This document shows, piece after piece, positions 3,155-62,236 of a stretch of 64,000 nt of DNA. Below the pieces are notes generated by a model. That model did no database searches and had not been told where the DNA came from. It saw nothing but the letters and a program-made list of their open reading frames with translations. The DNA lies in assembly GCA_049303905.1 (NCBI GenBank), contig JBAQNP010000020.1, positions 5,584 to 69,583 of the forward strand, written 5' to 3'. Source of the DNA: Candidatus Moraniibacteriota bacterium (GTDB lineage: Bacteria > Patescibacteriota > Minisyncoccia > Moranbacterales > UBA2206). The position numbers were made by a program, and so were the translations under genes. Position 1 is the first letter of the stretch, and every line of letters starts with the position of its first letter.

Positions 3155-3180
3155 GATGATTTAGTTTCTTTATTTTTCTA

Positions 3181-3245
3181 AATTAACTCACGGTCTAATT
3201 TTCTGGCTAAAAATTTTCCTCAATCGACGGCTGGAGGAAGGGACT
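3181..3245 (+). repeat. Copy 1 of a recurrent hairpin motif (loop core CTCAATCGACGGCTGG) in the tgt 5' region
   Basis: Shares aattaactc...ttctggctaaaaattttcctcaatcgacggctgg with copies at 3297, 4596, 14690 and 60375. Confidence 0.5.
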
Positions 3246-3296
3246 GAAGATTGTTATTAAAAATTAAAAAATAACTCGAAAGCGTATTTTAATAAT

Positions 3297-3340
3297 CAGA
3301 AATTTTCCCTCAATCGACGGCGGATAAGGAAAATTTCTGA
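3297..3340 (+). repeat. Copy 2 of the hairpin motif: 11-bp stem agaaattttcc/ggaaaatttct with 19-nt loop ctcaatcgacggcggataa
   Basis: Perfect inverted repeat around the conserved loop. Itself enclosed by a 19-bp long-range inverted repeat (3246-3265 / 3373-3391). Confidence 0.55.
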
Positions 3341-3414
3341 ATAAAATACACTTTCTCAAACAGGATTTTTTAAATTTTAATAACAATCTTCTTGTAAGTA
3401 TAGATAGAAAAAGT

Positions 3415-4590
3415 ATGTTTGAGATAATTTCAAAAAATCCCGCCTCGACTCGCGGAGACGGTCACTCGTCGATGCGAGGCGGGAGCAATAGTCGAGTTGG
3501 AAAAATTAGACTTAAAAACGGAGAAGTTAACACTCCGTTTTTTATGCCTGATGCGACGCGTGGTTTTGTGCGATCAATTGACAATGAAATTTTAAATTCC
3601 ATAGGTCTCGAAGCGATTCTCATTAACACCTATCATTTGTTTTTAAATCCTGGAATGAAAATAATCAAAGAAGCGGGTGATGCTCATGGCTTTATGAATT
3701 GGTCGCGTCCACTGCTTTCTGATTCGGGTGGATATCAGGTTTTTTCGCTTATTCATAAAAATCCGCGTCTTGGGAAGATTACTGATAATGAGGTGATTTT
3801 TAAATCTCCCCATAGTGGAGAAAAACATATTTTAACACCAGAAATTGCCATTCAAATTCAGTTTGATTTGGGGGTGGACATGATGGTTTGTTTGGATGAT
3901 CCACCACCGAATGATTATTCAAAAGATAAAATTGAAAAAGCAGTTTTGCGGACTATTCGTTGGGCAAAGAGGTGTAAAGATGAATATGAAAAACAAATTC
4001 AAGAAAGAAAAATATCTGAAAAAAATCGACCGTTAATTTTTGGGGTTATTCAGGGCGGGGAATATTTAGATCTTAGAAAACATTGTACCGAGGAACTAGT
4101 GAAAATCGGGTTCGATGGTTATGGTTTTGGAGCGAGACATATCGATGTTGATGGAAATTTCATGGAAGAAGTGGTGCGAGAAACCGCTGGCTTTATCCCA
4201 GAAAATTCATTGCGTTTTGCTTTGGGAGTTGGTACACCGGAGGATATTGTGAAATGTTTTTCATATGGCTGGGATATGTTTGATTGTGTGATTCCTACTA
4301 GAGAAGGGCGACATGGGCGTTTGTTTTTGCGAAAAGGAAAGAGTCTCACTGAATATGAAACAATTAATATTAATAACGGAAAATATAAAAATGATTTTTC
4401 GCGAATTGACGAGAATTGTGATTGTATGTTATGTAAGAATCACACTCGAGCCTATTTGCACCATCTTTTTTCTTCCAAAGAAATGCTTGGGATGAGACTC
4501 TCTGCAATTCATAATTTGAAGTTTTATGTGGATTTACTGGCGTCACTCCGAAATGGCGTAAATTCAAAAAAAATTGAACTCAAACCTTAA
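3415..4590 (+). CDS. tgt: Queuine tRNA-ribosyltransferase
   Basis: 391 aa with the DSGGYQ motif and a C-terminal CDCMLC zinc site. The N-terminus carries a 15-aa insertion encoded by a GC-rich palindrome. Confidence 0.9.
   Translation: MFEIISKNPASTRGDGHSSMRGGSNSRVGKIRLKNGEVNTPFFMPDATRGFVRSIDNEILNSIGLEAILINTYHLFLNPGMKIIKEAGDAHGFMNWSRPLLSDSGGYQVFSLIHKNPRLGKITDNEVIFKSPHSGEKHILTPEIAIQIQFDLGVDMMVCLDDPPPNDYSKDKIEKAVLRTIRWAKRCKDEYEKQIQERKISEKNRPLIFGVIQGGEYLDLRKHCTEELVKIGFDGYGFGARHIDVDGNFMEEVVRETAGFIPENSLRFALGVGTPEDIVKCFSYGWDMFDCVIPTREGRHGRLFLRKGKSLTEYETININNGKYKNDFSRIDENCDCMLCKNHTRAYLHHLFSSKEMLGMRLSAIHNLKFYVDLLASLRNGVNSKKIELKP
3439..3483 (+). repeat. GC-rich palindromic element family 1, 45 nt, in-frame inside tgt (encodes PASTRGDGHSSMRGG)
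   Basis: cccgcctcgactcgcggagacggtcactcgtcgatgcgaggcggg has terminal inverted repeats cccgcctcg/cgaggcggg. It is the reverse-orientation match of the copies at 37026, 29539 and 62138. Confidence 0.75.
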
Positions 4591-4595
4591 ATTTT

Positions 4596-4650
4596 CTTGC
4601 CAAAATTTTTTTGACAAGCAACGGCGGAACAAAATAATTTTGGAGAAAAT
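4596..4650 (+). repeat. Copy 4 of the hairpin motif (ttgccaaaatttttttgacaagcaacggcggaacaaaataattttgg) between tgt and the U32 peptidase gene
   Basis: Conserved ACGGCGG core between inverted AAAATTTT arms. Also reads as TTGACA-17-ATAATT, a sigma70-like promoter. Confidence 0.5.
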
Positions 4651-4712
4651 TTAGGTTTTCAAACAGTAATTTTTCTCGAATTTACGCCATTTCTCCGTTT
4701 TATAAAAAAATA

Positions 4713-6108: not shown

Positions 6109-6492
6109 ATGAATAATGATGGGGTAATTTATAAAGAATTGAGTTATAAAATAATGGGTGCTATATTTGAAGTATATAATGAGTTGGGGTATGGCTTTAA
6201 AGAAAGATATTATGAAGATGCTATTGCAAAGGAGTTTGATAGGATAAAGTTGGTTTATAAAAGACAATTACCATATAAATTAAAATATAAAAATGAAATA
6301 ATTGGTATTTATAGATTTGATTTTTTGGTTGACGATAAAATTATTATAGAATTAAAACAAGGCGATTTTTATTCAAAGCAAAATTTCACGCAAGCTTTGC
6401 AATATCTGAAGGCAACAAAATTAAAATTAGCAATTTTGATAAATATAACACAAAAAGGAGTAAAATTTAAAAGAATATTAAACATTAAATAG
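6109..6492 (+). CDS. GxxExxY family protein (PD-(D/E)xK nuclease superfamily)
   Basis: 127 aa. The start YKELSYKIMGAIFEVYNELGYGFKERYYEDA and FDFLVDDKIIIELK match the GxxExxY family pattern. Flanked by inverted tacaaat/atttgta word arrays. Confidence 0.75.
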   Translation: MNNDGVIYKELSYKIMGAIFEVYNELGYGFKERYYEDAIAKEFDRIKLVYKRQLPYKLKYKNEIIGIYRFDFLVDDKIIIELKQGDFYSKQNFTQALQYLKATKLKLAILINITQKGVKFKRILNIK

Positions 6493-8239: not shown

Positions 8240-8863
8240 ATGAAAAATAAAAAAACTATACCAAAACAAAAATCACTTTCAATTATTCCGGACGAAAGAA
8301 TTGTAGGAAAAATATATCTGATTCGAGGAGAAAAGGTGATGTTTGATCGTGATTTAGCGGAGCTTTATGAAGTGGAAACAAAAGCATTGAACAGAGCGGT
8401 TAAAAGAAATATAAAAAGATTCCCAGCTGATTTTATGTTTCAGTTGGATAAAAATGAATCTGAAATATTTTCAAGGTACCATTCTGGCACCTTGAAAGAG
8501 GATGCTAACTTGAAGTCACAAATTGTGACTTCAAGAGATGACAAAAACTTGAGGTACCAAATTGGCACTTCAAGGTCACAAATTGTGACCTTGAAGAAAG
8601 GGCAGAATATAAAGTATCGCCCTTATGTTTTTACCGAACAAGGTGTAGCCATGCTGTCAGCTGTTTTGAAGAGTGAGAGAGCAATTGAAGTAAGCATCCA
8701 AATTGTTCGAGTTTTTATAAAAATGAAAAAATTATTGACTACTCATAAAGAACTGCGAGAAAAAATTGAGAAAATGGAAAAATCGAACAAAGAAAATTTC
8801 ACCCCGTTAGAAATTTTTAAAAATAAATATTATGAAATGGTGGTACATTTATGTTTTGCTTAG
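8240..8863 (+). CDS. ORF6N (KilA-N-like) domain protein
   Basis: 207 aa. N-terminus IRGEKVMFDRDLAELYEVETKALNRAVKRNIKRFPADFMFQL is the canonical ORF6N signature, and the C-terminal YVFTEQGVAMLSAVLKSERAIEVSIQIVRVF is conserved. Has an internal duplicated SQIVT segment. Confidence 0.75.
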   Translation: MKNKKTIPKQKSLSIIPDERIVGKIYLIRGEKVMFDRDLAELYEVETKALNRAVKRNIKRFPADFMFQLDKNESEIFSRYHSGTLKEDANLKSQIVTSRDDKNLRYQIGTSRSQIVTLKKGQNIKYRPYVFTEQGVAMLSAVLKSERAIEVSIQIVRVFIKMKKLLTTHKELREKIEKMEKSNKENFTPLEIFKNKYYEMVVHLCFA

Positions 8864-9098
8864 TCTAAAGGATAATAAATGGTATACTGGATATACTGGT
8901 AATCTAAAAAATAGAATTGCAAAACATAATTCTGGAGAAGTATTTTCTACAAAAAACAGGAAGCCATTTAAACTGATATATTCAGAAGCTTGTTTAAATA
9001 AATTAGACGCCCAAGCTCGAGAAAGATATTTAAAATCAGGAATGGGCAAAAGATATCTTAGGAATAGATTAAGATGTTATTTTGATAAAAATGATTAA
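8832..9098 (+). CDS. GIY-YIG nuclease domain protein, small stand-alone
   Basis: 88 aa. YIYVLLS...KWYTGYTGNLKNRIAKHN matches the GIY-YIG motif. Overlaps the 3' end of the ORF6N gene by 32 nt. Confidence 0.7.
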   Translation: MKWWYIYVLLSLKDNKWYTGYTGNLKNRIAKHNSGEVFSTKNRKPFKLIYSEACLNKLDAQARERYLKSGMGKRYLRNRLRCYFDKND

Positions 9099-9162: not shown

Positions 9163-12100
9163 ATGAAAAAGAAACTGAACGCATTGGGTTTAGAGATAAA
9201 GATTAAAATTAAAAATTACTCCAGAATGTTTCTAAAATCAAAAATAAAATTACTAATATTTTTCTTCTCAATAACTGTGTTATTGGTTTTGACGTCGAAT
9301 GATGCAAGTGCTTATACCTGTACTTGGACCGGAACAACTTCTACTGCTTGGGCGATAGCCACCAACTGGTCTGGGTGTAATTCAACTATTCCACAAACGA
9401 CGGATGATGTGGTGATTAATGTTGCTTCAGCCAATCAACCAATCCTTGATCTCATAGGAGGGAAAACAATAAATTCTCTTTCGATCGGATCGACACTAGC
9501 TTCAACCCTTACTCTTTCCAATGGTTTAGTAGATGTTAATGTTAATAAATTAACCATCACTAATAATCTAACTATTGGAGGTTCTGGCACAATTACCAGC
9601 ACCGCCAACACCACCGCCCAAACTCACAGTGTGAATATGTCGGTGGGAGGGAATGTGGGTATTGAGAGTGGGGGGAAGATTGATGTGACGGGGAAGGGGT
9701 TGAGTGGAGGAGCGGGGGGGGCTGTATATACTAGTGGTTCACCCGGTTACCTTATTAATGGTGGCGGTGGCAGCGGTGGCGGTTATGGCGGTTATGGTGG
9801 CAGTTGCGGTGGCGGTGGCGGTTATGGAGGGGCAGGAGGAGGTGGCACTGGCGGAGCAGGCGGAATAGTACATGATCAAGTTGATAATTCTCACCCAACT
9901 GTTCTTGGCTCTGGAGGTGGTGGTGGGTCAGGAGATGGAGCTGGTCATGCTGGGAGTGCAGGTGGCAAAGGGGGTGGATCAATAAAATTAAATGTGCTAG
10001 GAATACTAACTTTGAATTCCGGTAGTGGGATATACTCCAATGGAAGCAATGGAATCAACGGAGGAGCTAGTGGCGGAGGCGGAGGAGGCGCTGGCTCTGG
10101 TGGTTCAATTTGGATCCAAGCCGGAACAATTACTGGCACAGGAACGGTTCGGGCTAATGGAGGAACAGGAGGAACTGTCACTGCTTTTAGTATAACAGCA
10201 ATAGGTGGTGGTGGAGGAGCAGGTGGAAGAATTGCAATTTCAAGCACGAGAGGATTAACAATAACAGCTGCTGGTGGTCTCGGATACGATAGTCTATATG
10301 GCGGAACCGGCACAATATACTACAACGCTTCCGGAATATACACTTCCGAAGTTTTGGATTTTTCTGGAGCTAGAGATTTTACTACATCTGACATTACTAA
10401 ATCAGAACCTGGGACTTCTACAGTAGTAGTTTCACTTCACGGTGGTGACACCGATAATCCAAATGACTGGGCAGACAATTGGACAGTTATAAATGACAAC
10501 GACGACATCTCAGTTTTTGATAATTTCAGATATTTGCAATACAAAGTAGAATTTTCCTTTACTGGTTTGTCGACTGAAGATAAACCTAGTTTGCAAGATA
10601 TTTCAATAAACTATAACGCTTATCTTGACAAAACCCTCACCTCCTCAGTATACAATTCCAATTCCGACGCTAACTTAATCGGAGGAATATCTTGGGATGA
10701 AACTCTAAGCTCAAACACTAACATTAAATTCCAAATCCAAACTTCCGCCGACGGAGTCACTAATTGGTCAGGATGGTTTGGACCAGACGAAACTGACACT
10801 ACATATTTTGACGAAACTGATTCCCCTGACTTTTGCACAAAAACTGATTCAATTGTCACTTGCACAGTAGACGCTATCCCCTCAGCTTTCAAAGACGGAG
10901 CCAATGATCAATACTACCAATACAAAGCCTATCTAGATACTACCGATGGACTGGCTACTCCAACTCTAAATTCTGTCACCGTCACCTACGTAGTCAACGC
11001 CAACCCGGAAATTGAAGCCAGTCAAACTACCGCTGTCCCGGATGCCAATCAAAGAGTTAATGTTTCATATAACGTCCGAGACACCGACTCAGTTTCCGGC
11101 ACCATCACTCCAAGTTTTGAATATTCCCTAGATGGCGGATCTAGTTGGGTATCCATAACTTCCGGTTGTCTTGGTGCTACTGACTTAGCTGCTAAAACAG
11201 TCAATACCACCGAAGAAACTAAAAACAATTATATAACTTACACTGCCGTTTGGACTCCTGCTTGTGAAGCTGGTATCTCCACCACTACTTATGAAATCGA
11301 CGTTCAAATCCGAGTGAGAGCTGATGATGGTCAAGCCGCTAATCGCTATGGGTATGGAACAACAGAAAATTTCACCCTCGACACCAAAGCACCAATTCCC
11401 GACACCAAATCCATTATTATCTCCGCCAGAAAAACTACTGACAACCTCGCTCTCAATGCTGTCGATGATTCAACCAAACAAATGCGAGTAGGATTAGAAT
11501 CAGATCTATCTGACGGAACTTGGATAGACTACAACACTCTAGCTACAATTGATATTACCGACAACCCTGAAACTGCCTATGTTCAATTTCGAGATATCTT
11601 TGGCAACACTTCCGAAATTGAGAGTGTCACTGCTCCTGTTGCTCCTCAAAGCCTGATGATTCAAGACACTTCCAACACTCTTCTTGCCGAACCCGAATAC
11701 CGACTCTTCATAGCTTGGCAAGTACTCGACAATGACCAATACGGAGCATTATTTGATAAATATGTCATCTACCGCAGTGCCGACAATGGGGCTACCTATA
11801 CAGAAGTTCACACTATTTCCGACATCAGCACCAACTATTGGGCTGACAATACTGTAGTAGGAGAAGCCACTTACTATTATCGCGTCACTCACAAAAACGA
11901 CTACGGCATTGAAAGTTTTGGCAATGAATCCGCCTACAGCGACCCAGTCTATGGCAATGCCAACGGAGTTGAAGATGCCGGCGAAGGTGGAGGAGGAACA
12001 TCATCTGTTCCACCGGTTATTTCCAATGTTGCTATTCCCGAAGATTCCATCTATTCCACCCAAGCCACTATCACTTGGGACACTGACACTCTCTCTGACT

Positions 12101-14652: not shown

Positions 14653-14689
14653 GGAGAGAACTAAAAACAAAAAAATATTCTTGAAATTA

Positions 14690-14755
14690 ACTCGCCCTTG
14701 ATTTTTATAGCTAAAAATATCCCTCAATCAACGGCGGGAAAGGATATTTTAAGAT
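14690..14755 (+). repeat. Copy 3 of the hairpin motif (aattaactcgcccttgatttttatagctaaaaatatccctcaatcaacggcgggaaaggatatttt)
   Basis: 9-bp stem aaaatatcc/ggatatttt around the 19-nt loop ctcaatcaacggcgggaaa. The upstream arm aattaactc...gctaaaaat is shared with copy 1. Confidence 0.55.
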
Positions 14756-15027
14756 AAAAATCTAGGGCTCAAACAAGAATTTCGGCGAATATTTTTTGTT
14801 TTTAGTGGAGAGGAGGGAGAGAGGCGAGATATGAAGCATGAAAAAAGAGGGGTTCAATTTTATCGATAAAATTACAAAAAGGCTTATATAAAGCAAAATA
14901 GAATAACGGCTATTGCGTAAAAAACTGCCACATGGTAGGATATTTAGGTCGTTTTGAAAACTGGGTGGCAGGGAGGTTTAGCAAAAGCTTAGGCTAAAAA
15001 GGGGACATTCCAGACAAACTGAAAATA

Positions 15028-15711
15028 ATGAGCGGACAACTTCGGCTCGGGGGGATAAGGAGGATAAAAAAACATAATATTCTAGTACTAATAATTCTCG
15101 CGGTAGTCGTGAGGTTGTTTTTTTCTATCTTTTTAGGCGATAATGCTTTGGCAAAAAAGCCAGAAGACATTTCTAATAGTCAAAAATTCAGTTCAATTGA
15201 TCCATTAAAAAACATTAATCCTGAAAATCTTTTTGAAAAAAGTGATGTAAAAGCTAGCTATAATAAATCAACCCTTAAAAAAGATAAAGAATCTAATAAT
15301 AAACAAGAAGAGATCTATGATGAGCTAGTAAAAGGCTATCCTTTGGCTGTTATGACTTTGGAAATTTCTAAACAGGACAAATCAGTAGCAGCCTTTCTCA
15401 TCGCCATCGCCAAAAAAGAAAGTGATTGGGGGAAACATTCTCCAAAAAAGAATGGTGAAGATTGTTATAATTATTGGGGGTATCGTGGAGGTTATAATGC
15501 CACTGAATCAGGATATAGTTGTTTTGACAGTCCAAGTCAAGCTATTGCAGTCGTGGGAGGAAGAATTGAAAATTTAATTGATCAAGGAATTAATACGCCA
15601 GAGAGAATGATTGTTTGGAAATGCGGGCGGGATTGTTCTTGGGATAATCCAGTAGCCGTCAAAAAATGGGTGAGTGATGTGAGTGCCTATTATCATAAAT
15701 TGAATTCATAG
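15028..15711 (+). CDS. Secreted or membrane-anchored protein, possibly GH73-like N-acetylglucosaminidase domain
   Basis: 227 aa with an N-terminal TM. KESDWGKH...NYWGYRGG loosely resembles the ESGWG...NNLFGI motif of FlgJ/LytD glucosaminidases. Cys-rich C-terminus. The family call is weak. Confidence 0.45.
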   Translation: MSGQLRLGGIRRIKKHNILVLIILAVVVRLFFSIFLGDNALAKKPEDISNSQKFSSIDPLKNINPENLFEKSDVKASYNKSTLKKDKESNNKQEEIYDELVKGYPLAVMTLEISKQDKSVAAFLIAIAKKESDWGKHSPKKNGEDCYNYWGYRGGYNATESGYSCFDSPSQAIAVVGGRIENLIDQGINTPERMIVWKCGRDCSWDNPVAVKKWVSDVSAYYHKLNS

Positions 15712-15720
15712 TGGGTGAAA

Positions 15721-15861
15721 CTTATTCAATTAAATATGCCGAACGCGCTTCGGCGCGGAAGCATTCTAGTGATAAAAAGTCTCGACATGCTTGTAATAAA
15801 TAATCTATGTGAATAATTTTTAAGCGCCTCCGTAAGCTCTCGACATATTTAATTGAATAAG
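15721..15861 (+). repeat. MITE-like element A: 141 bp bounded by perfect 17-bp terminal inverted repeats CTTATTCAATTAAATAT/ATATTTAATTGAATAAG
   Basis: Interior carries the hairpin cgcgcttcggcgcg and the block ttaagcgcctccgtaagctctcgacat, shared with element B at 32655-32807. Confidence 0.7.
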
Positions 15862-15920
15862 TTCCAGATAAAAAATAAACCTCAGTGGTTTATTTTTTAA
15901 TTTTAGTGTAAAATAATAGT

Positions 15921-20578: not shown

Positions 20579-20983
20579 ATGCGTATAACGAAAGAACAAA
20601 AAGCGAATACGGCTAAAATTGCCAAAAAGCATAAACTAAAATTGGTCGTCATTTTTGGTTCTTTTGCCAGTGGAAAAAACAGAAAAGACAGTGATTTGGA
20701 TATGGGCGTGATTGGGGAAAAAGAAATTTCTTTTGAAAAGCAAATTGTCTTGACAAATGAATTATCTCAAATTTTCAAAAAGGATATCGATCTTTCAGTT
20801 TTAAATAGAGCTAATCCGCTATTACTTTTTGAGGCCAGTAGAAATGCTGTTTTAGTCTATGGCGAGAATAGTGAATTGGCCAAATTCAAGTTGTATGCTT
20901 TTCGAGTATACAATGACTATGCACCATATTTCAAAATTGAAAATGAATTGAATAAAAGATTAATAAAATCTTATGCCAGTTGA
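20579..20983 (+). CDS. Nucleotidyltransferase (MNT) antitoxin component of a HepT/MNT toxin-antitoxin pair
   Basis: 134 aa. GSFASGKNRKDSDLDMGV is the minimal nucleotidyltransferase GS...D.D motif. Confidence 0.8.
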   Translation: MRITKEQKANTAKIAKKHKLKLVVIFGSFASGKNRKDSDLDMGVIGEKEISFEKQIVLTNELSQIFKKDIDLSVLNRANPLLLFEASRNAVLVYGENSELAKFKLYAFRVYNDYAPYFKIENELNKRLIKSYAS

Positions 20984-21395
20984 TAAAAATATTATCATTA
21001 GAAAAATAACTTTGATAAACAAGGATTTAAAAAGTTTGGAAAAACTTAGTAAGCTTTCATTGAAAACTTATCTGAGCAAATCGGAATACGAAGCAATGGC
21101 GGAAAGATATCTGGAGAGAATAATTGGTCGGATGATTGATATTAATTATCATATTTTGTCAGAAAAAGAGAATAAAACTGCGGTAGATTTCTATAATTCC
21201 TTTATTGAAATGGGTAAGAAAAAATATTTGCCATCAAAGCTAGCACTTGTTATGGCTAATTCAGCAGGACTTAGGAATAGGTTAGCTCATGAATATGATG
21301 AAATTGATGAGAAAAAAGTTTTTGAAGCGATAGCTTCATGCTTGCGAGATGTTCCGAAATATTTAAAAAGTATTATGAAAGTTTTGAATTTGTAA
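20973..21395 (+). CDS. HepT-like (DUF86) toxin component
   Basis: 140 aa. The RNRLAHEYDEID sequence carries the R(x)4HxY motif. Overlaps the MNT gene by 11 nt, the usual toxin-antitoxin operon arrangement. Confidence 0.8.
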   Translation: MPVDKNIIIRKITLINKDLKSLEKLSKLSLKTYLSKSEYEAMAERYLERIIGRMIDINYHILSEKENKTAVDFYNSFIEMGKKKYLPSKLALVMANSAGLRNRLAHEYDEIDEKKVFEAIASCLRDVPKYLKSIMKVLNL

Positions 21396-23818: not shown

Positions 23819-23906
23819 TATTATTTACGAAAATACGAATTTAGCGAAAGTACGAATAAAATTCAAAAAGGATTAGTAATTTCGTTCGATTCGTATTTTC
23901 GTAAAT

Positions 23907-24295
23907 TTGTGGAGATGATGGGAATTGAACCCATGTCCAAAGCTATTCATCTAAAATCCTCTACAAGCTTAGTTAGTTTGTTTAGGTTGGAAGTTATGAA
24001 CTAACAAAATATTCCAACCTTTTTTCTAGTTTAATTTTACTAAATTTGCCTAGAAAATGCAATTTTAGCTATCCTAATGTATAACACCGAGCTCTATCTA
24101 TTAGGAGTGGATAGTTCGATGGCCTCGGCAATTAAGCCAAAGCGTAGGCAAAGTTAGCTGAGAAAGCTTGCGCAATCGCAGTTTTTGCTTTTGAAAATAA
24201 GTTTGCACTTATTGATTTGGTAAAATTTTAACGAGTGATTACCATTCTCGGCTTGCATATTTTAAACGTACAACTTGTCGAAACCAAACATCCCC
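23907..24295 (-). ncRNA. ssrA: tmRNA (SsrA), one-piece
   Basis: The 5' end GGGGATGTTTGGTTTCGACAAG (reverse complement of 24274-24295) matches the tmRNA 5' consensus. The 3' end has T-arm atggg-ttcaatt-cccat and acceptor strand catctcc pairing with ggggatg, including a G3:U wobble. An internal frame reads GCA AAA ACT GCG ATT GCG CAA GCT TTC TCA GCT AAC TTT GCC TAC GCT TTG GCT TAA (tag ending ...ANFAYALA). Sits directly downstream of smpB. Confidence 0.8.
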
Positions 24296-31376: not shown

Positions 31377-32651
31377 ATGAAACATAAAAAAACTACTCTC
31401 AAAAATGGTCTCAAGATAATCACGGCCCCAATGCGGGAAACTCAAACAGTGACAGTAATGGTGATGATTGGTGTGGGGTCGCGCTACGAAAGTGAAAAAG
31501 AAGCGGGACTTTCGCATTTTATCGAACATATGTTTTTTAAGGGTACCAAAAAAAGACCAACGACTCTTATGATTTCAGAAGAGTTGGAATCAATCGGTGG
31601 AGAATTCAACGCTTTTACTGCCAAAGACAAAACAATGTATTATGTCAAAGTTGATGCTAAGCACATTGAAACGGCAATGGATGTGTTGAGTGATATGTAT
31701 CTAAATTCCAAATTAGAAACGGTGGAAATTGAAAAAGAAAAAGGCACAATTGTTCAGGAGCTCAATATGTATGAGGATTTGCCGATGAGAAAAGTAGAAG
31801 AAGTTTTTGAAGAGATGCTTTATCCAAAAAACAGCTTAGGGCGAGAAATTGTAGGTAGTAAAAAAACAATCAATTCATTCAAGCGTCAAGATTTTGTTGG
31901 ATTTATGAAAAAGTTCTATGTGGCTAATGATACGGCTGTATCAGTAGCCGGAAATTTTAATGAAAAGAAAATAGTTGAAAGGATTGGAAAATATTTTTCC
32001 AAAATGCCAAAAGGAAAGAAGATAAAAATTTCTAGCGTTAAGGAGGAACAAAAAAAACCAGAAGTGAAAATTAAATTTAAAAAAACCGACCAGACGCATT
32101 TGGTTTTGGGAGTGCGAGCTTACAAAAGAAATCACAAGGATCGATATGCTTTGGCGTTAATGTCAATTATTCTTGGCGGTGGAATGTCTAGTCGACTTTT
32201 CATTGAAGTACGAGAAAAAAGAGGTTTGACCTATTATGTGCGAACAGGCATTGAAACTTATGAAGATGCGGGTTATGTTTCAACTAGCGCTGGAGTGGAA
32301 CACAAAAATTTAGAAGAAGCTGTTCGAGTTATTCTTACTGAATATAAAAAAATCGCCGAGGAGAAGGTGAGCGAAAAAGAATTGCAAAAAGCCAAGGATT
32401 TTGTCAAAGGCCGAGCGGTTATGGGCATGGAATCATCGGACGAAGTGGCAATGTTTTTTGTTGATCAAGAAGTTTCTAATGGAAAGATTTCCACCCTGGA
32501 AGAGAAATTCAAGCTTATTGATAAAGTCAGTATAGATGATATACTAAGAGTAGCAAAAGATGTTTTTCGCCAAAATAGGCTTAATTTAGCAGTTATTGGA
32601 CCGCACAAAAATAGTGAAAAGTTGAAAAAGGAATTAGAGAAATTGGTCTGA
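31377..32651 (+). CDS. Peptidase M16 family (pitrilysin-like) zinc protease
   Basis: HFIEH inverted zincin motif (HxxEH) and the downstream E. Confidence 0.8.
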   Translation: MKHKKTTLKNGLKIITAPMRETQTVTVMVMIGVGSRYESEKEAGLSHFIEHMFFKGTKKRPTTLMISEELESIGGEFNAFTAKDKTMYYVKVDAKHIETAMDVLSDMYLNSKLETVEIEKEKGTIVQELNMYEDLPMRKVEEVFEEMLYPKNSLGREIVGSKKTINSFKRQDFVGFMKKFYVANDTAVSVAGNFNEKKIVERIGKYFSKMPKGKKIKISSVKEEQKKPEVKIKFKKTDQTHLVLGVRAYKRNHKDRYALALMSIILGGGMSSRLFIEVREKRGLTYYVRTGIETYEDAGYVSTSAGVEHKNLEEAVRVILTEYKKIAEEKVSEKELQKAKDFVKGRAVMGMESSDEVAMFFVDQEVSNGKISTLEEKFKLIDKVSIDDILRVAKDVFRQNRLNLAVIGPHKNSEKLKKELEKLV

Positions 32652-32654
32652 GAT

Positions 32655-32807
32655 GAGGACTTGCATATTTAAAAATACTGAACGCGCTACGGCGCGAAAA
32701 ATATTTTTAAAAATAAAGTCCCGACATATTCGTAAAGATTAAATTAATGCTAGAATTTCTTAAGCGCCTCCGTAAGCTCTCAATATTTTTAAATATACAA
32801 GTCCTAA
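32655..32807 (+). repeat. MITE-like element B, about 153 bp, terminal inverted repeats AGGACTTGcATATTTAAAAATA / TATTTTTAAATATACAAGTCCT
   Basis: Interior matches element A (gaacgcgctacggcgcg..., aaagtcccgacat, ttaagcgcctccgtaagctctcaat). Confidence 0.7.
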
Positions 32808-32827
32808 AAGAAAGGAAATAAAATTTC

Positions 32828-34601: not shown

Positions 34602-35168
34602 ATGCAACCGTATAAAAAACTTTTTACATATTGGTTTTCAGTTGTTATTTATGATCATACTGTGGAATTTTGCAATCGGTGGATAAAAAGCTATAAATTA
34701 AAAGAGCAAATGAATGGTGCAGCTAGGAGCGGAAAACAAAACATCGTCGAAGGATCTGATGATATGGGAACCTCACTTAAAATTGCTATAAAACTTTCTG
34801 GCACATCTAAAGGTTCCTTAGAGGAATTAACTGGCGATTTAGAGGATTTTTTAAGGCAAAATAATCTTCGAAAATGGGATAAAAATAATCCAGGGACGCA
34901 AAAATTTCGCCAAGAAAGTTCAAAGTTGATAAAATATTTAGCAGAAACAAGAAATGAGGAAATTTTGAAAACGGTCAAATTACCGAAAGATCAGGAGAGA
35001 GCTACTAATTGGCTTTTGACTCTCTGTCATCAAGCAACATATCTTTTGAGTCGACAGATAAAAGCTCTTGAAGAAAAACATATGAAAGAAGGTGGCTTTA
35101 CGGAGAAATTATATAGCAAGAGAATAGAATATCGTGAAAAGCAAAGAAATAATTATTTAGAAGCTTAA
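34602..35168 (+). CDS. Four-helix-bundle protein (23S rRNA IVS / Avd-like family) with C-terminal extension
   Basis: ...AARSGKQNIVEGS...KGSLEELTGDLEDF matches the TIGR02436 pattern (S.P.NIAEG...GSL.EL.T). Confidence 0.55.
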   Translation: MQPYKKLFTYWFSVVIYDHTVEFCNRWIKSYKLKEQMNGAARSGKQNIVEGSDDMGTSLKIAIKLSGTSKGSLEELTGDLEDFLRQNNLRKWDKNNPGTQKFRQESSKLIKYLAETRNEEILKTVKLPKDQERATNWLLTLCHQATYLLSRQIKALEEKHMKEGGFTEKLYSKRIEYREKQRNNYLEA

Positions 35169-40895: not shown

Positions 40896-40964
40896 TGTCA
40901 TCCTGAACTTGTTTCAGGATCTCCGAAACTAAGTACGAGATTCCGAAACAAGTTCGGAATGACA
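40896..40964 (+). repeat. Double-hairpin element family 2 copy (variant) downstream of atpH
   Basis: tgtcatcctgaacttgtttcaggatc...gattccgaaacaagttcggaatgaca. Hairpin B arms have changed (ccgaa instead of gctgaa) but the inverted repeat is preserved. Confidence 0.65.
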
Positions 40965-47169: not shown

Positions 47170-49608
47170 ATGGAAAAATACGAACCTAAAGAAATCGAGC
47201 CTAAATGGCAAAAAAAGTGGGCAGAAAACCCGGATAATTTTAGCGCTAAAAATGACTCTGACAAGGAAAAAGCCTTTATATTAGACATGTTTCCCTATCC
47301 GTCAGGGGCGGGGCTACACGTGGGGCATGTGGAAAGCTATACGGCGACGGACATATATTCTCGCTATCTTCGAATGAATGGGAAAAATGTGCTTCATCCG
47401 CAGGGTTTTGACGCTTTTGGTCTTCCAGCGGAAAATTATGCGATAAAGACGGGAATTCATCCAAAAGAAACAATTTCCAACGCGGTAGAAGTTTTCAAGC
47501 GTCAAATTGATTCACTTGGTTTTTCTTATGATTGGTCGCGCGAAGTTAATTCATCAGTACCTGAATATTATAAATGGACACAGTGGTTGTTTCTTTTGTT
47601 TTATAAAAATGGTTTGGCGTACAAGAAAAAAGCCAAGGTGAATTGGTGTCCAAAATGTCAAACGGTTCTGGCAAATGAGCAGGCGGAAAATGGCAAATGC
47701 GAAAGATGCGAATCGGAAGTTATTCAAAAAGATCTCGAGCAATGGTTTTTCAAAATTACTGATTTCATTGAAGACAAAGGAAAAACTTCTGGGCTATTAA
47801 ACGGCTTAGAAAAAATTGATTGGCCAAATTCAACAAAGCTTTTGCAAAAAAATTGGATTGGAAAATCAGAGGGCGCAGAAGTTTATTTTAAATTTGAGAA
47901 TAGCGATGAAGTGGTTTCTGTTTATACTACTCGAGTGGACACTATTTTTTCTTGTACTTATATAATTCTAGCTCCTGAGCTTGAGCTAGTTGAAAAAATA
48001 ACAACAAAAGAACAAAAAGAGGAAGTTGATGCATATATTAAACAAGCTAATTCCAAAACTGATTTAGAGCGAACTGGAACACAAAAAAATAAAACTGGAG
48101 TTTTCACGGGAGCCTTTGTTATTAATCCAGCTACAAATGAAAAAATTCCTGTTTGGATTTCTGATTTTGTTTTGGCTGGATATGGAACTGGTTCTGTTTT
48201 TGCTGATGCTCATGATGAAAGAGATTTCGAAATGGCAAAAAAATATAATATTCCACTTAAAGTTTCTATTAAGCCAGCGGACGAAAGTTTATGGGAAAAA
48301 GTAAAAAATCTTGAAGAGTGTTATCCGGATGATGGCGTCCTAGTAAATTCCGAGCAATTTGATGGCTTGACTTCATCTGAAGCAAGAGCCGAAATTACAA
48401 AATGGCTAGAAGAAAATAATTCAGGTAAAAGAGCGATAAAATATAAACTTCGAGATTGGCTAGTTAGCCGACAAAGATATTGGGGCGCGCCTATTCCAAT
48501 TATATATTGTGAAAAATGCGGTGAGGTGCCAGTGCCAGAAATTGATTTGCCAGTTGAATTGCCGGATGATGTGGATTTCAAACCGACCGGGGAATCTCCT
48601 CTAAAATATTCCAAAAAATTTCAAGAAGTGAAATGTCCAAAATGTGGAGGGGAAGCAAGAAGAGAATCGGACACGATGGACACTTTTGTTTGCTCTAGCT
48701 GGTACTATTTACGCTACGCTGACCCAAAAAATGAAAAAGAATTTGCTTCCAAAGAAAAACTGGAAAAATGGCTTCCGGTGGATCTTTATGTCGGCGGAGC
48801 GGAGCACAGTGTGCTTCATCTTCTTTACGCCCGATTTTTCACGAAAGTTTTGCATAATTTGGGGTACCTAAATTTCGATGAACCATTTTTGAAACTGCGT
48901 CACCAAGGAACAATTCTGGCGGAAGACGGAACGAAAATGTCAAAATCAAAAGGCAATGTGGTCAATCCGGATGATGTTGTGAAAGAATTTGGCGCGGATG
49001 CTCTTCGATTTTTTGAAATGTTTATGGGGCCTTTGGAAGATATGAAGCCGTGGCAGACAAAAGGTATTGTGGGAGTGAGGAGATTTTTGGAAAAAATATG
49101 GAAAATTCAGTATAAAGTATCAAGTATAAAGTATCAGGTATCAAATAAAAAGCTAGAATCCCTGATGCATAAAACAATTAAAAAGGTTAGTGGGGATATT
49201 GAAGAAATGAAATTTAATACTGCAATAAGTCAATTAATGATTTTGGCTAATGTTTTTGATAAAGAAGATGAAATAAACTTAATACATTATACTTTATACT
49301 TACTACTGCTTAGTCCTTTCGCACCGCATCTAGCTGAAGAACTCTGGGAAAAATTAGGGCACAATGAGTCGATATTTTTGCAAAAATGGCCTGTGTATGA
49401 TCCGGAAATGATTAAGGACGAAGAAATAGAACTTATTATTCAAATCAATGGAAAAGTGCGCGATAAGATAACTGTGAATGCAGATATTTCAGAAGACGAA
49501 GCAAAAATGATTGTGCTTGAAAGAGAAAAAGTTAAGATTCATATCGCAGAAAAAGAGATAAAAAAAATTATATTTGTTAAGGGGAGATTAATAAACATAG
49601 TAGTTTGA
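47170..49608 (+). CDS. leuS: Leucine--tRNA ligase
   Basis: HVGHVESYTATD (HIGH motif), KMSKSKGN motif, 812 aa. Contains an in-frame heptamer repeat block (agtataa/agtatca) at about 49100-49140. Confidence 0.95.
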   Translation: MEKYEPKEIEPKWQKKWAENPDNFSAKNDSDKEKAFILDMFPYPSGAGLHVGHVESYTATDIYSRYLRMNGKNVLHPQGFDAFGLPAENYAIKTGIHPKETISNAVEVFKRQIDSLGFSYDWSREVNSSVPEYYKWTQWLFLLFYKNGLAYKKKAKVNWCPKCQTVLANEQAENGKCERCESEVIQKDLEQWFFKITDFIEDKGKTSGLLNGLEKIDWPNSTKLLQKNWIGKSEGAEVYFKFENSDEVVSVYTTRVDTIFSCTYIILAPELELVEKITTKEQKEEVDAYIKQANSKTDLERTGTQKNKTGVFTGAFVINPATNEKIPVWISDFVLAGYGTGSVFADAHDERDFEMAKKYNIPLKVSIKPADESLWEKVKNLEECYPDDGVLVNSEQFDGLTSSEARAEITKWLEENNSGKRAIKYKLRDWLVSRQRYWGAPIPIIYCEKCGEVPVPEIDLPVELPDDVDFKPTGESPLKYSKKFQEVKCPKCGGEARRESDTMDTFVCSSWYYLRYADPKNEKEFASKEKLEKWLPVDLYVGGAEHSVLHLLYARFFTKVLHNLGYLNFDEPFLKLRHQGTILAEDGTKMSKSKGNVVNPDDVVKEFGADALRFFEMFMGPLEDMKPWQTKGIVGVRRFLEKIWKIQYKVSSIKYQVSNKKLESLMHKTIKKVSGDIEEMKFNTAISQLMILANVFDKEDEINLIHYTLYLLLLSPFAPHLAEELWEKLGHNESIFLQKWPVYDPEMIKDEEIELIIQINGKVRDKITVNADISEDEAKMIVLEREKVKIHIAEKEIKKIIFVKGRLINIVV

Positions 49609-49719
49609 ATCATTTTAACATCCTAGCATTTTAACATATTAGCATCGCTAAAGTAGCATTATTTGATAAAATGCTAAAATGTTAATATGTTAATATGTTA
49701 ATATGTTAAATGAACTTTT

Positions 49720-57823: not shown

Positions 57824-58453
57824 TTATTTTTTAAAATATAATTCTCTAATAGATTCTTCAATTGCCTCTCTGATTATTTTTTCTAATTTTAAATAATTAT
57901 GATCATCCGCGAGTTGCAAGGCCTTGATATAATTATTTCTTCCAGAAATTGTTTCGACTTTCAACTCAACTGGTGGTAAATTTAGATTAAGCAAAATGAC
58001 ATTGTTTAGCAATCTGCCGAGTCTGCCATTGTAATCTTGAAATGGATGAATCCAAGAAAATCTATGATGTGCCCAAGCGATCAAAAAAATCAGTTCATCG
58101 AAAAATTTATTGTCATCAATTTTTGGTAGATGTTTTATCCTTATTTGCAGGTCTTGAGTAAATTCAAGCATGAGTTGCGGTACTAAATAAAATTTCGGCG
58201 GAATATGTTTTGAAACCTTGACCTCAATGTTCCGATATCGGCCACCCATTTTTGGGAAAATCCAACCGAAGCCAATTTTGTGAATTTGTTTTATAAATTC
58301 CGGTGTGAGGGGCAAATTGCCTTTCTCGTTTTTTTGCAAAACAAAATCCCACGCCTTTTTTATCCCTTCAATTTCTAAAGGAATTAATTTAGAGCGCGGG
58401 ATGATGCCGAAGGCTGTTTCTTTGTAACTAGTTTCGCCTCTGCGTTTTTTCAT
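57824..58453 (-). CDS. Fic/Doc family protein
   Basis: Fic motif HPFQDYNGRLGRLL (HPFx[DE]GNGR). Confidence 0.85.
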   Translation of the reverse strand: MKKRRGETSYKETAFGIIPRSKLIPLEIEGIKKAWDFVLQKNEKGNLPLTPEFIKQIHKIGFGWIFPKMGGRYRNIEVKVSKHIPPKFYLVPQLMLEFTQDLQIRIKHLPKIDDNKFFDELIFLIAWAHHRFSWIHPFQDYNGRLGRLLNNVILLNLNLPPVELKVETISGRNNYIKALQLADDHNYLKLEKIIREAIEESIRELYFKK

Positions 58454-58686: not shown

Positions 58687-60369
58687 TCATAAATTTTTCA
58701 CCATATAGCTATCTTTCAACTTATATCCTAATTTTCGATAATATCCACGCACGCCGACGCCTGAAATTACTACAATTTTATCAAGACGGAATTCTTTTTT
58801 GGCTATTTTTTCAGCCTCTAGGATTAGTTTTTTTCCAAGGCCGATGTGTTGAGGAGAGAGCGTATCTTTTTGATTGATCTGATTCATTTTGCCATAAGTA
58901 TGTACTTCCCTTATTATGGCAGAATTTTTCAGAACATTCGGGACTATACTTTTTTCGTTATTTATTCTTAGGCGTAAAAGCGCAAAAAGTTTAGACCTCA
59001 CCCCAGCCCTCTCCTTATTAAGGAGAGGGAGCGTTGAATACTCCAGGAATATTTCTTGGCCATCGCTAGCAGGATAATCAATACGATTTAGAATTATTTT
59101 TTCTTTGAGATTATAATCCGAACGAACTTCGCGACAACGAATGCAAGGACAGGTGGATTTTTTGGCAATTAGTTGGCGAAGATTAGAAATCTTTGGTCCG
59201 GCGATGATGGAACTTTCTGGCACATCGCGCACTAGGCGAGAGATGCGAACATAAGGTGGAATGATTTCATTTTTGACACGCAGGATAAATTTTTCAAAAC
59301 TTTTGTCGGTGAGGGCTTTATATTTTCCAGCTTTCCATATTTTATACAGTGGACTTTGACGGATAACGACAGTCGGATAAATCTTGAGCATATCTGGTTG
59401 GAAAGAGGAACTACTAAAAAGTTCTTGAAACATTTGAAAATCTTTTTTGATGCTAGAGCCAAGTAGCCCTGGCATAATATGATAGTTAATTTTGAAACCA
59501 AAATCTTTGAGCAGTTTTGTAGCTGTGACAGTTTTTTGAACGTTGTGTCCGCGTTTATTTTTTTCTAATACATCATTAAAAATACTTTGCACGCCAAGTT
59601 CAACTCGAGTGCATCCAAGATTTCTAAAATTAATTAGTTCCTCTACATTGATATAATCCGGTCGCGTTTCTAGTGTTAGCCCAACTATTCTATGCTTAGC
59701 CGTCTCATTCTTCCTTTGCTCTGTTTTTAAATTTTTTTCGGTTTTGTTATATGTTTCATGTTTCATGTTGCATGACTTAGGGTAGTCATTGCAAGCCCGA
59801 AAACAGTCTAAGATAAATTTATTCTGGTAGGCTTTTGGCAAATAGGAAAAGGTTCCGCCCATTACGATTAATTCAATCTTGTCAGTTTTGTGACCATTAA
59901 GTTCGAGAGCGTGAATTCTTCTTTGTACTTGAAGATAGGGATCAAACTTTGCGGAAATGGCGCGCATCACAGCTGGTTCATTTGAAAGATAGCTTTTAGG
60001 CATTTCTTTTTCGGTGGGGCAATAGATGCATTTTCCTGGACAAGGATAACTTTTAGTAAGCACTGCCACCACGGCTACACCAGAATCAGTGCGAATTTTT
60101 TTGCTAAAAAGACAATTTTCTAAATCCGGATTACGTTTGATTTTTTTCTCGAGAATCATTTTTTCATAAAGTTCGCGAATATCAGCATTGGTTGGAAGGG
60201 GTAATCCCAGCTCCTTGCAAATCTCTTTTTTCCGTTTCAAAAAAAGCGCAGGACTGGAAATCTTGGTTTGGGTTGCTAGTTTTATGAAATTGTCATAGGA
60301 TTTAAGCATGGGGGTGGGGTGGGTGAATTTAATTTTTGTAATTTGGAAAAAATAAACTTGAACGCGCAT
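58687..60369 (-). CDS. Elp3-like radical SAM + GNAT protein (tRNA wobble-uridine modification family)
   Basis: CPGKCIYCPTEKEM radical-SAM cluster region and a C-terminal GNAT domain. The likely true start is the internal MLKSYDNF at 60309. Contains an MKHET insertion (59741-59777). Confidence 0.8.
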   Translation of the reverse strand: MRVQVYFFQITKIKFTHPTPMLKSYDNFIKLATQTKISSPALFLKRKKEICKELGLPLPTNADIRELYEKMILEKKIKRNPDLENCLFSKKIRTDSGVAVVAVLTKSYPCPGKCIYCPTEKEMPKSYLSNEPAVMRAISAKFDPYLQVQRRIHALELNGHKTDKIELIVMGGTFSYLPKAYQNKFILDCFRACNDYPKSCNMKHETYNKTEKNLKTEQRKNETAKHRIVGLTLETRPDYINVEELINFRNLGCTRVELGVQSIFNDVLEKNKRGHNVQKTVTATKLLKDFGFKINYHIMPGLLGSSIKKDFQMFQELFSSSSFQPDMLKIYPTVVIRQSPLYKIWKAGKYKALTDKSFEKFILRVKNEIIPPYVRISRLVRDVPESSIIAGPKISNLRQLIAKKSTCPCIRCREVRSDYNLKEKIILNRIDYPASDGQEIFLEYSTLPLLNKERAGVRSKLFALLRLRINNEKSIVPNVLKNSAIIREVHTYGKMNQINQKDTLSPQHIGLGKKLILEAEKIAKKEFRLDKIVVISGVGVRGYYRKLGYKLKDSYMVKNL

Positions 60370-60374
60370 TTTTT

Positions 60375-60415
60375 TGCTAAAATTTTTCTAAGTCAACGGC
60401 TGGTACGAAAAATTT
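60375..60415 (+). repeat. Copy 5 of the hairpin motif (gctaaaatttttctaagtcaacggctggtacgaaaaattttag) in the divergent promoter region
   Basis: 11-bp stem ctaaaattttt/aaaaattttag around a loop containing TCAACGGCTGG. Confidence 0.55.
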
Positions 60416-60521
60416 TAGAAAAAATCCGCATTCTTCGAACAACAATTTTTTCCAAATTACAAAAATTAAATTAACAATAGAGAGGGAGAGGAGAAAATTT
60501 TAATCATTCAATTTATTTATT

Positions 60522-62125: not shown

Positions 62126-62137
62126 GCTTTACGAATT

Positions 62138-62178
62138 ACCCGCCTCGCGTCGACGAGCGTCTCCGCGAGTTGAGGCGG
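62138..62178 (+). repeat. Family 1 GC-rich palindromic element, intergenic copy between parA and parB
   Basis: cccgcctcgcgtcgacgagcgtctccgcgagttgaggcggg. Confidence 0.75.
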
Positions 62179-62236
62179 GCGAATTTATACGAATTTACAA
62201 ATAATTTGGTAATTAAAATATTTTAAAATAAAAATT

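Follow-up and report, generated by a model that had tools for sequence, protein, structure and literature searches.

The attC sites of integrons lie directly after the stop codon of the preceding open reading frame and reach up to about 140 nt. They work through a single folded strand, the bottom one, which in chromosomal integrons is on the leading-strand template. Correia elements, the MITEs of Neisseria, measure about 155 bp with 26-bp inverted ends, and their copies have common terminal repeats and a duplicated TA target. REPINs possess neither classical terminal repeats nor target duplications, probably act in the form of folded single strands, and show long vertical persistence. Within a REPIN, the spacer is constrained only in its length and its capacity to form a hairpin, and compensatory changes are common (PMC3116915). 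Correia elements are transcribed together with the genes beside them, fold into hairpins as RNA and can provide promoters (PMC2649163).

The 64-kb stretch of DNA analysed here (the window) contains six full hairpins, A to F, which are 148–155 nt long and all in one orientation. They are another interspersed palindromic repeat family, set apart by variable stems, fixed loops and one favoured strand. The main reading, to which we give a probability of roughly one half, is a lineage-specific family of noncoding hairpin insertions of a small Candidatus Moranbacteria clade, mobilised in trans as a folded strand. On the best reading, the elements appear closer to REPINs, Correia elements or attC sites than to classical MITEs, and the mechanism of their movement is one that we infer.

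Like REPINs, which are mobilised by RAYTs, the elements are noncoding, intergenic and apparently non-autonomous hairpins kept by compensatory change. However, REPIN copies carry highly conserved 16–25-mer REP ends and a variable spacer, whereas in the present elements it is the loops that are conserved and the ends that vary. At about 70–110 nt, REPINs are also shorter, no RAYT gene was seen here in the ORFs of the window or in neighbour loci, and literature searches found no REPINs in CPR bacteria. Correia elements, like those described here, show presence/absence differences between strains, but neither common terminal repeats nor a TA duplication is found in the present family. With attC sites the likeness is that structure is conserved and sequence is not. 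Unlike attC, the elements lack basal RYYYAAC/GTTRRRY boxes; inspection by eye shows no fit for the ends of A (GAAACTT...AAGTTCC), B (AGGACTT...AAGTCCT) or C–F. The basal helix is 26–31 bp here and about 7 bp in attC, the neighbours are syntenic housekeeping genes rather than cassettes, and there is no integrase in the window. ERIC/IRU, RUP, BOX and RPE repeats resemble the elements in being imperfect palindromes of ~100–150 bp in transcribed intergenic regions, and some ERIC/IRU-type repeats run into gene ends and alter C-termini, as D appears to do to TGT. Those repeats are recognised by sequence similarity between copies, whereas here the stems are at chance similarity and only the loops are conserved.

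Elements A and B

The first-pass annotation described two MITE-like elements, A and B. Both exist at the positions it gave, the only discrepancy being one base at the start of B. Their features are as follows, with conserved motifs written on the + strand and no strand assigned to hairpins and arms.

15716–15866, no strand: element A, full hairpin of the A/B subfamily
15716–15742, no strand: 5' arm of A, pairing with 15840–15866 (27 nt at 93% complementarity)
15840–15866, no strand: 3' arm of A (inverted-repeat search)
15741–15757, + strand: block 1 of A, GAACGCGCTTCGGCGCG (block search of the window)
15776–15788, + strand: block 2 of A, AAAGTCTCGACAT (A–B alignment)
15820–15841, + strand: block 3 of A, TTAAGCGCCTCCGTAAGCTCTC (exact-match search)
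15869–15899, + strand: A+T-rich hairpin and T-run after A, terminator-like and symmetric, ancestral to the locus and outside element A
32654–32807, no strand: element B, full hairpin of the A/B subfamily
32656–32681, no strand: 5' arm of B, pairing with 32780–32805 (26 nt at 92%)
32780–32805, no strand: 3' arm of B (inverted-repeat search)
32680–32696, + strand: block 1 of B, GAACGCGCTACGGCGCG (block search of the window)
32716–32728, + strand: block 2 of B, AAAGTCCCGACAT (A–B alignment)
32760–32781, + strand: block 3 of B, TTAAGCGCCTCCGTAAGCTCTC (exact-match search)

The perfect 17-bp ends claimed for A were confirmed at 15721–15737 and 15845–15861 and extend into the longer 27-nt arms, whose mismatches read as C.A on the + strand and as G.U on the minus strand. 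Inverted arms are likewise present in B, with the length and complementarity given above. Three interior blocks had been proposed as common to both elements, and they are real: the interiors align as GAACGCGCT[T/A]CGGCGCG, AAAGTC[T/C]CGACAT and TTAAGCGCCTCCGTAAGCTCTC (22/22 identical). The window search for further occurrences covered blocks 1 and 3, each of which was found exactly twice against 0–0.1 expected from shuffles. As had been suggested, the interior is far more conserved than the arms, both in the A–B alignment and among four A/B copies; the arms of A and B are ~66% alike by a hand count on the alignment.

Block 1 is constant in the four A/B copies save for its loop base, which is T in the A lineage and A in the B lineage, so that the loop on the + strand reads UUCG in A and UACG in B (UNCG-type). 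Block 3 shows a single change, CCTCC to CCTTC, in L098B. Block 1 of A can fold locally as CGCGC-UUCG-GCGCG or pair with block 3, and the two arrangements are not separable because blocks 1 and 3 are invariant or nearly so in the four copies. Compared with shuffled sequence, A and B fold with z-scores of -5.6 to -6.9 on either strand.

The hairpins begin 4–5 nt past upstream stop codons (15709–15711 for A and 32649–32651 for B), which bears out the reported placement directly after genes. A lies between a gene for a 227-aa protein without a Pfam match upstream and one for an EamA-type membrane protein downstream, while B lies between an M16 peptidase gene upstream and an AI-2E transporter gene downstream. 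Since these flanking genes are unrelated, the elements do not belong to a larger duplicated segment, the outcome that had been named as fatal to the first description. A and B are noncoding, hairpin-shaped, placed just after stop codons, and inserted. The terminator said to follow A is there as a hairpin and T-run, and is found in every relative, but its G+C content is under the cut-off of the terminator scan, and it is older than A.

A wider family defined by shape

The count of two elements was too low. An inverted-repeat search with 90–100 nt between arms and a scan for arms with at least 16/18 matches gave five hairpins (A–E). F is a sixth copy that the repeat scans missed; it was recovered at 100 bits by a covariance model built from nine C–F-type sequences, with F absent from the seed alignment. 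The window thus holds at least six full hairpins of equal size and orientation and one truncated copy, and the size range of the family is roughly 145–170 bp. The members of the C–F subfamily are listed below.

~3165–3243, no strand: truncated older copy with only the 5' arm, an AACTC loop motif and apical CGACGGCTG; its 3' end adjoins C
3244–3393, no strand: element C, between the DUF11 and TGT genes (124 bits)
4548–4695, no strand: element D, whose 5' arm supplies the last codons and stop of TGT (144 bits)
14659–14806, no strand: element F, beginning 7 nt past the stop of a 1829-aa ORF (100 bits)
60322–60476, no strand: element E, in a divergent intergenic region (126 bits)

The truncated copy aligns with the 5' halves of E and F and of two copies from relatives (L039C and L040C), and it ends where C begins. 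E is flanked by a + strand methyltransferase gene starting at 60522 and by a minus-strand radical SAM gene, the start of which probably lies near 60310, as read by eye from the sequence. The elements mark the ends of at least one short-read contig, L075, which begins inside F and finishes inside A.

Each copy is laid out as an outer arm of 26–31 bp, an asymmetric internal loop, inner stems and an apical loop. In C–F, the order on the + strand is 5' arm, AACTCGAA, inner stems, apical loop with CRACGGCKG, inner stems, TCTCAAACAG and 3' arm. By-eye reading indicates that the internal loop results from a short motif (CTCGAA / CTCAAA) common to both arms and repeated there directly instead of inversely. 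CRACGGCKG, the apical motif, was counted five times in the window, where 0.5 would be expected; all five are on the + strand and within elements, one of them in the truncated copy. Small ORFs in the elements or after their purine tails are not conserved between orthologs.

The C–F covariance model gives no score for A or B. Size, orientation, general layout and short strings are common to A/B and C–F, the strings being TGAACGCGC in B and E, ACGGCG, and CTCTCGAC, which resembles TCTCAAAC. A/B and C–F are likely two subfamilies of common origin; that this kinship rests on size, orientation, architecture and short strings counts against the main reading.

Pairing is conserved to a far greater extent than sequence. 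On the model alignment of 14 C–F copies, 96.6% of cells form standard pairs, 37/50 pairs are changed on both sides, and covariation scores 0.70 compared with 0.20 for shuffled alignments and at most 0.20 with slid partners. Among the four A/B copies, compensatory change affects 10 pairs, every one of them in the arms. The arms of C–F have no mutual resemblance and yield no consensus across copies; their ends vary, and the conserved parts are the internal-loop and apical motifs (AACTCGAA, TCTCAAACAG and CRACGGCKG). A copy is defined by its shape and a few unpaired motifs (C–F) or three GC-rich blocks (A/B), not by its arm sequence.

This pattern bears on the reading as classical MITEs, in which the elements would be deletion derivatives of an insertion sequence, with a transposase that binds terminal inverted repeats and leaves target-site duplications. 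In its favour, the elements are small, noncoding, multi-copy and intergenic, with inverted ends and with presence/absence differences between related genomes; B and two copies from relatives (L004-2 and L041) have the end sequence AGGACTT...AAGTCCT in common. However, the arm sequence is unique to each copy, the palindrome spans the whole element, the conserved parts are unpaired loops, and no parent insertion sequence was seen in the window. The first-pass annotation took the arms for terminal inverted repeats, but they do not behave as transposase-bound ones, since pairing is kept through compensatory change while sequence is not kept. It also proposed looking for TA or TTAA target-site duplications, but no consistent duplication of these or any other kind was found, either between filled and empty A and B junctions or in the flanks of 18 copies. 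An A-rich 7-mer flanks the element in L004 and is not repeated in the window or in L079. MITE-like therefore stands for a small, noncoding, inserted element and fails for the shared arm consensus and target-site duplication of a classical MITE, which makes this reading very unlikely.

Known families gave no match. Rfam contained no family for the elements at the gathering threshold, and across the whole window it returned only tmRNA and two tRNAs; permissive scans of A, B and C produced only chance-level miRNA or snoRNA-type matches. Ribozymes, 6S, SRP and tRNA-like RNAs were rejected as known RNA families without a match. BLASTN of A against plasmids and of D against phages found nothing, and a scan of viral contigs for the A/B core gave 17 matches, none with the other blocks. 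The internal loop was considered as a T-loop, an anticodon-like UGU or a kink-turn, and in each case the required bases are not invariant across copies. By eye, the consensus sequences of attC, DnaA boxes and IHF sites do not fit. The elements are not intrinsic terminators, as no T-run directly follows them on either strand; D and its counterpart L037D have a short GTTTT from 5 nt past the arm, not adjacent to it. Literature searches on hairpin or MITE-type repeats in Patescibacteria or Moranbacteria found nothing relevant.

Turnover at gene junctions among relatives

Relatives were taken as loci around homologs of TGT, the 227-aa protein and the AI-2E transporter, which form a graded series, several of them named Moranbacteria by their sources. 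The proposal that the core be sought beyond the window was followed in 185,579 species genomes. The scan gave 33 matches, of which one is true, L004 (a Candidatus Moranbacteria MAG, UBA4824); the other 32 are chance matches in G+C-rich coding DNA. Orthologs of the window elements were located at L004 840–984 (A), L098 5859–6007 (B) and L079 4027–4174 (F).

The B junction holds B in the window and in L098 (95% AI-2E identity). In L099 (89%) the same junction holds a different, unrelated 123-nt hairpin, and in L100, L101 and L102 (87–80%) it is empty, with 3–5 nt from the M16 stop to the AI-2E start. At the A junction, the element is present in the window and L004, whereas L077, L078 and L080 (82–67% identity) lack it and have the terminator-like hairpin; hairpin and T-run come directly after the stop in L077 and L078, and in L080 they follow it at 15 nt. 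As this site is kept in relatives without A, it predates A, which was inserted between the stop and the site. At the A junction of L079 (87%) there is only AACTTGC followed by TTAACTGCACAAGTT, which corresponds to the L004 version reduced to its outer arms by deletion of the core.

C is found in the window, L037, L038, L039, L040 and L099, and is missing from L034, L035 and L036. D is found in the window, L034, L035, L037 and L099, and is missing from L038, L039 and L040. The DUF11 3' ends of L037 and L038 are very similar (~250 nt, by eye), yet their C-junction elements are entirely different, L038 having a copy with a D-type apical half. L004 carries an extra 156-nt hairpin, with ends AGGACTT...AAGTCCT, between the terminator and EamA, and other hairpins of ~120–160 nt and different sequence occupy other junctions in relatives. 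Among the loci compared, no such hairpins were found in relatives more distant than about 66% TGT identity.

Insertion is the parsimonious direction, since repeated deletion restoring a 3–5-nt gene junction is improbable. Comparison of these orthologous junctions shows that elements have been gained, replaced, truncated and deleted among close relatives. The landing sites are few-nucleotide junctions of co-directional housekeeping genes, or the last codons of the upstream gene, and one junction can carry different elements in different genomes. TGT, the U32 and M16 peptidases and AI-2E are syntenic across relatives with or without a hairpin. No near-identical copies were found at different sites; the copies are old and diverged, with no sign of recent transposition.

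The same junctions dispose of the elements as riboswitches or 5' leaders of the transporter genes that follow them (EamA for A, AI-2E for B). This reading had drawn on the membrane transporters encoded by both downstream genes, on the terminator-like hairpin after A and on the ribosome-binding region after B. It effectively fails on the empty orthologous junctions, as the element is missing next to the EamA and AI-2E orthologs in near relatives. Furthermore, another hairpin lies between A and EamA in L004, the terminator predates A, riboswitch P1 helices do not resemble perfect stems of 17–27 bp, the genes after sister copies are unrelated, and Rfam gives no match; a regulatory leader is thus extremely unlikely.

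Many copies are followed by a purine-rich tail, as listed below for the window.

14807–14824, + strand: purine tail after F, GGAGAGGAGGGAGAGAGG (18 nt)
32806–32818, + strand: purine-rich tail after B, AAAAGAAAGGAAA (13 nt), 9 nt before the AI-2E start codon
60479–60497, + strand: purine tail after E, AGAGAGGGAGAGGAGAAAA (19 nt)

Relatives show purine runs of 22 nt in L034D and 40 nt or more in L039C. Across the right flanks (40 nt each), the longest such run had a median length of 10 nt, compared with 5 nt in 38 control upstream regions of the window (p = 3e-7). The tail of B is absent from empty B junctions and is therefore part of the inserted DNA, and it sits where the ribosome-binding site of AI-2E is expected. 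That of E lies 24 nt from the next start codon, too far to serve as its Shine-Dalgarno site, and the E and F tails are not positioned to serve a real gene.

The probable folded strand and a proposed mode of movement

To compare the strands neutrally, 18 copies were folded with Watson-Crick pairs only, and symmetric 1x1 and 2x2 mismatches were classed. A.C on the + strand (G.U on the minus strand) accounted for 25 mismatches, compared with 3 that were G.U on the + strand and 24 others. The model alignment gave 22 versus 3 in favour of minus-strand G.U, with 21 other mismatches and 624 Watson-Crick pairs. Minimum free energy was lower on the minus strand in 12 of 13 copies, and the A/B consensus energy was -49 kcal/mol on the minus strand and -34 kcal/mol on the + strand.

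GC skew is positive throughout the window and the + strand is G/T-rich at 4-fold degenerate sites, which identifies the + strand as the leading strand. The minus strand is accordingly the leading-strand template, and it is antisense to the flanking genes. Mutation pressure would predict G.T on the + strand, so the observed wobble pattern is the opposite of the mutation bias. We conclude that the pairing constraint probably acts on the strand of minus polarity, as RNA or single-stranded DNA, with the wobble pattern as our guide to the strand. Contrary to this trend, L098B has two + strand G.U pairs, the elements lie within strings of + strand genes, and A is upstream of its gene's own terminator-like site.

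Position fits + strand mRNA hairpins, intercistronic or in 3'-UTRs, that would be co-transcribed with the upstream gene and serve the host as exonuclease barriers, RNase III sites or translation modulators, like REP, ERIC and Correia elements. Transcription of the + strand is almost certain by position, with elements 1–10 nt after stops or over them in co-directional strings, and A and B have a UNCG-type loop on that strand. The purine tail can serve as the ribosome-binding site of the next gene, and Correia elements bind RNase III and create promoters (PMC2649163). However, G.U on the + strand should then be tolerated, yet it is the rarest class (3 versus 25). No + gene lies upstream of E, and orthologous junctions can do without the elements. 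A host-serving mRNA hairpin is consequently an improbable account. The small RNA or 3'-UTR element that was first suggested gains no support, for the + strand, from the wobble pairs, which favour the opposite strand.

Transcription of the minus strand would make the hairpin and its loops the functional product of structured antisense sRNA or cis-antisense RNA genes, in which a C/U-rich stretch upstream, complementary to the purine tail, might base-pair with Shine-Dalgarno regions. The almost exclusive minus-strand wobble pairs, the lower minus-strand folding energies, the strong covariation and the conserved loops are consistent with this, and E lies just upstream of a minus-strand gene in the same direction. 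Against it, no promoter-like site is conserved to the right of the elements, where -10/-35 sequences at a fixed distance were sought, and the gap to the next + gene is often only 14–22 nt. The symmetric terminator-like hairpin between A and its downstream gene should halt incoming antisense transcription, and no minus-strand terminator follows the hairpin. Near relatives also have orthologous junctions without elements, which would be unusual for a needed RNA gene. Antisense RNA genes are therefore considered rather unlikely.

In the main reading, by comparison, the hairpins would be non-autonomous and would be moved or copied by an enzyme acting in trans. Such an enzyme would read the folded single strand by its structure and loop motifs, not by terminal inverted repeats; REPINs with their RAYTs, the ends of IS200/IS605 elements and integron attC sites offer parallels. 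Folded-strand recognition would explain the lack of an arm consensus, the lack of a target-site duplication, the uniform orientation and the strand-specific wobble pairs. On the other side, no transposase, RAYT, integrase or reverse transcriptase was found among the 39 ORFs scanned in the window or among neighbouring genes with Pfam annotation across about 140 kb of related loci, and there are no young, near-identical copies. Minigenes of the PD-(D/E)XK and GIY-YIG nuclease types were noticed. Junctions could also gain an element by homologous recombination with an element-bearing relative, and template-switch correction can produce compensation within DNA palindromes even where no selection acts on a folded strand. 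As leading-strand template, the favoured strand is rarely single-stranded. The two + strand G.U pairs of L098B and the UUCG/UACG loop, a + strand RNA feature, also weigh against folded-strand mobilisation.

A related proposal is a mobile element specified by shape and copied via a single strand of minus polarity, either as ssDNA or by reverse transcription of read-through RNA. In the first version, a structure-specific enzyme would recognise the loop motifs of a single-strand DNA intermediate. In the second, a + strand read-through transcript comprising hairpin and purine tail would be reverse-transcribed and the hairpin cDNA would integrate. Such a bacterial SINE-like retro-element would explain why wobble pairs lie on the strand complementary to the transcript, why the 3' tail is rich in purines, why the elements are co-oriented with flanking genes and why terminal repeats and target duplications are lacking. 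We regard the proposal as possible but not probable.

CPR/Patescibacteria genomes are regarded as extremely streamlined. About 1.5% of the 64-kb stretch consists of structured noncoding insertions that turn over between close relatives, and nothing comparable was found in Rfam, in phage or plasmid collections or in the Patescibacteria literature searched. Similarity-based repeat finders would miss a family defined by structure and loops. The strand-specific wobble pattern offers a testable handle on the active form of the nucleic acid, and a cognate enzyme, if one exists, would be an activity that handles DNA or RNA in a structure-specific way, in a phylum about which little is known.

Some copies probably affect their neighbours, so that gene junctions would be rewritten by the purine tail as a ribosome-binding site (B), by a promoter-like site (D-type copies) and by altered last residues of TGT. 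D and its orthologs begin in the last TGT codons, and the C-terminal tails of TGT differ between genomes. The promoter-like site lies in the apical part of D.

4611–4638, + strand: putative sigma-70-like site TTGACA-16-AATAAT, near-consensus with 11/12 matches

The TTGACA-16-AATAAT site is retained in L037D, L038C and L099D.

A second hairpin subfamily and its flanks

Elements C, D, F and E form a second subfamily of hairpins, with lengths of 148-155 nt over the four copies in the window and an orientation identical to that of A and B, the first elements flagged. The loop motifs AACTCGAA, TCTCAAACAG and CRACGGCKG are common to all four. Full element C is adjoined by a truncated copy of the same type, which is closest in likeness to the copies at the C junction (between the DUF11 and TGT genes) of the related loci L039 and L040.

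Hairpins of the second subfamily and hairpin-associated sites in the window
3165-3243: truncated C-F type element, 5' half only
3244-3393: element C
4548-4695: element D
4611-4638, + strand: near-consensus sigma-70-like site (TTGACA-16-AATAAT), apical part of D
14659-14806: element F
14807-14824, + strand: purine tract after F
32806-32818, + strand: purine tract after B
60310-60325: G-run GGGGGTGGGGTGGGTG, directly left of element E
60322-60476: element E
60479-60497, + strand: purine tract after E

Many hairpins are followed immediately 3' on the + strand by a GA-rich purine tract, and in L039 this tract reaches at least 40 nt (about 10028-10075). The tracts that follow hairpins are longer than those found upstream of ordinary genes in the window (p = 3e-7). 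The sigma-70-like site within D is directed toward the downstream gene and is kept in D-type copies from three relatives. The G-run beside E lies around the likely start of a minus-strand radical SAM gene, and G-rich left flanks are also seen at other copies.

Other repeats at gene junctions

The gene junctions of relatives hold further hairpins of about 120-160 nt that differ in sequence (L004 1048-1203; L041 1841-1989; L099 9844-9966 and 15121-15261; L100 8580-8732 and 17635-17762), which suggests that several such families exist within the clade. Some of these carry B-like ends (AGGACTT...AAGTCCT).

Further repeats and the tmRNA gene in the window
23823-23906: TACGAA/ACGAAA-rich inverted repeats adjoining the tmRNA gene
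23907-24295, - strand: tmRNA gene
40896-40964: palindrome of about 69 nt, TGTCATCCTGAACTTGTTTCAGGATCTC / GAGATTCCGAAACAAGTTCGGAATGACA, shorter than the A-F hairpins

This shorter palindrome type, which also occupies the junction of the TGT and U32 peptidase genes in L036 (about 11180-11240), appears to be another repeat family. Inverted repeats similar to those beside the tmRNA gene occur at other junctions in relatives (L037 7108-7214; L038 about 11130-11200). The window also holds a hairpin of 115 nt (1021-1135) and two intergenic regions rich in repeats (49109-49307 and 49611-49710), with units of the AGTATCAAGTATAAAG and TTTAACAT...TAGCAT types.

Assembly, replication and accessory genes

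L075 and L076 are Logan contigs from the same strain as the window; L075 starts within hairpin F and ends within hairpin A. Short-read assemblies of such genomes are probably broken up by the palindromes. GC skew is positive across the entire window, which therefore contains neither origin nor terminus. Near its right end lie two genes:
61334-63139, + strand: parA and parB

Small genes of types frequently regarded as selfish or accessory (PD-(D/E)XK_3 nuclease, ORF6N, GIY-YIG nuclease, sub-threshold 23S rRNA IVP-like match, MNT/HepT pair and Fic) are found at 6109-6492, 8240-8863, 8832-9098, 34602-35168, 20579-21395 and 57824-58453. In the related contig L102, a GIY-YIG minigene (2619-2843) fills the TGT-U32 junction, elsewhere the site of hairpin D.
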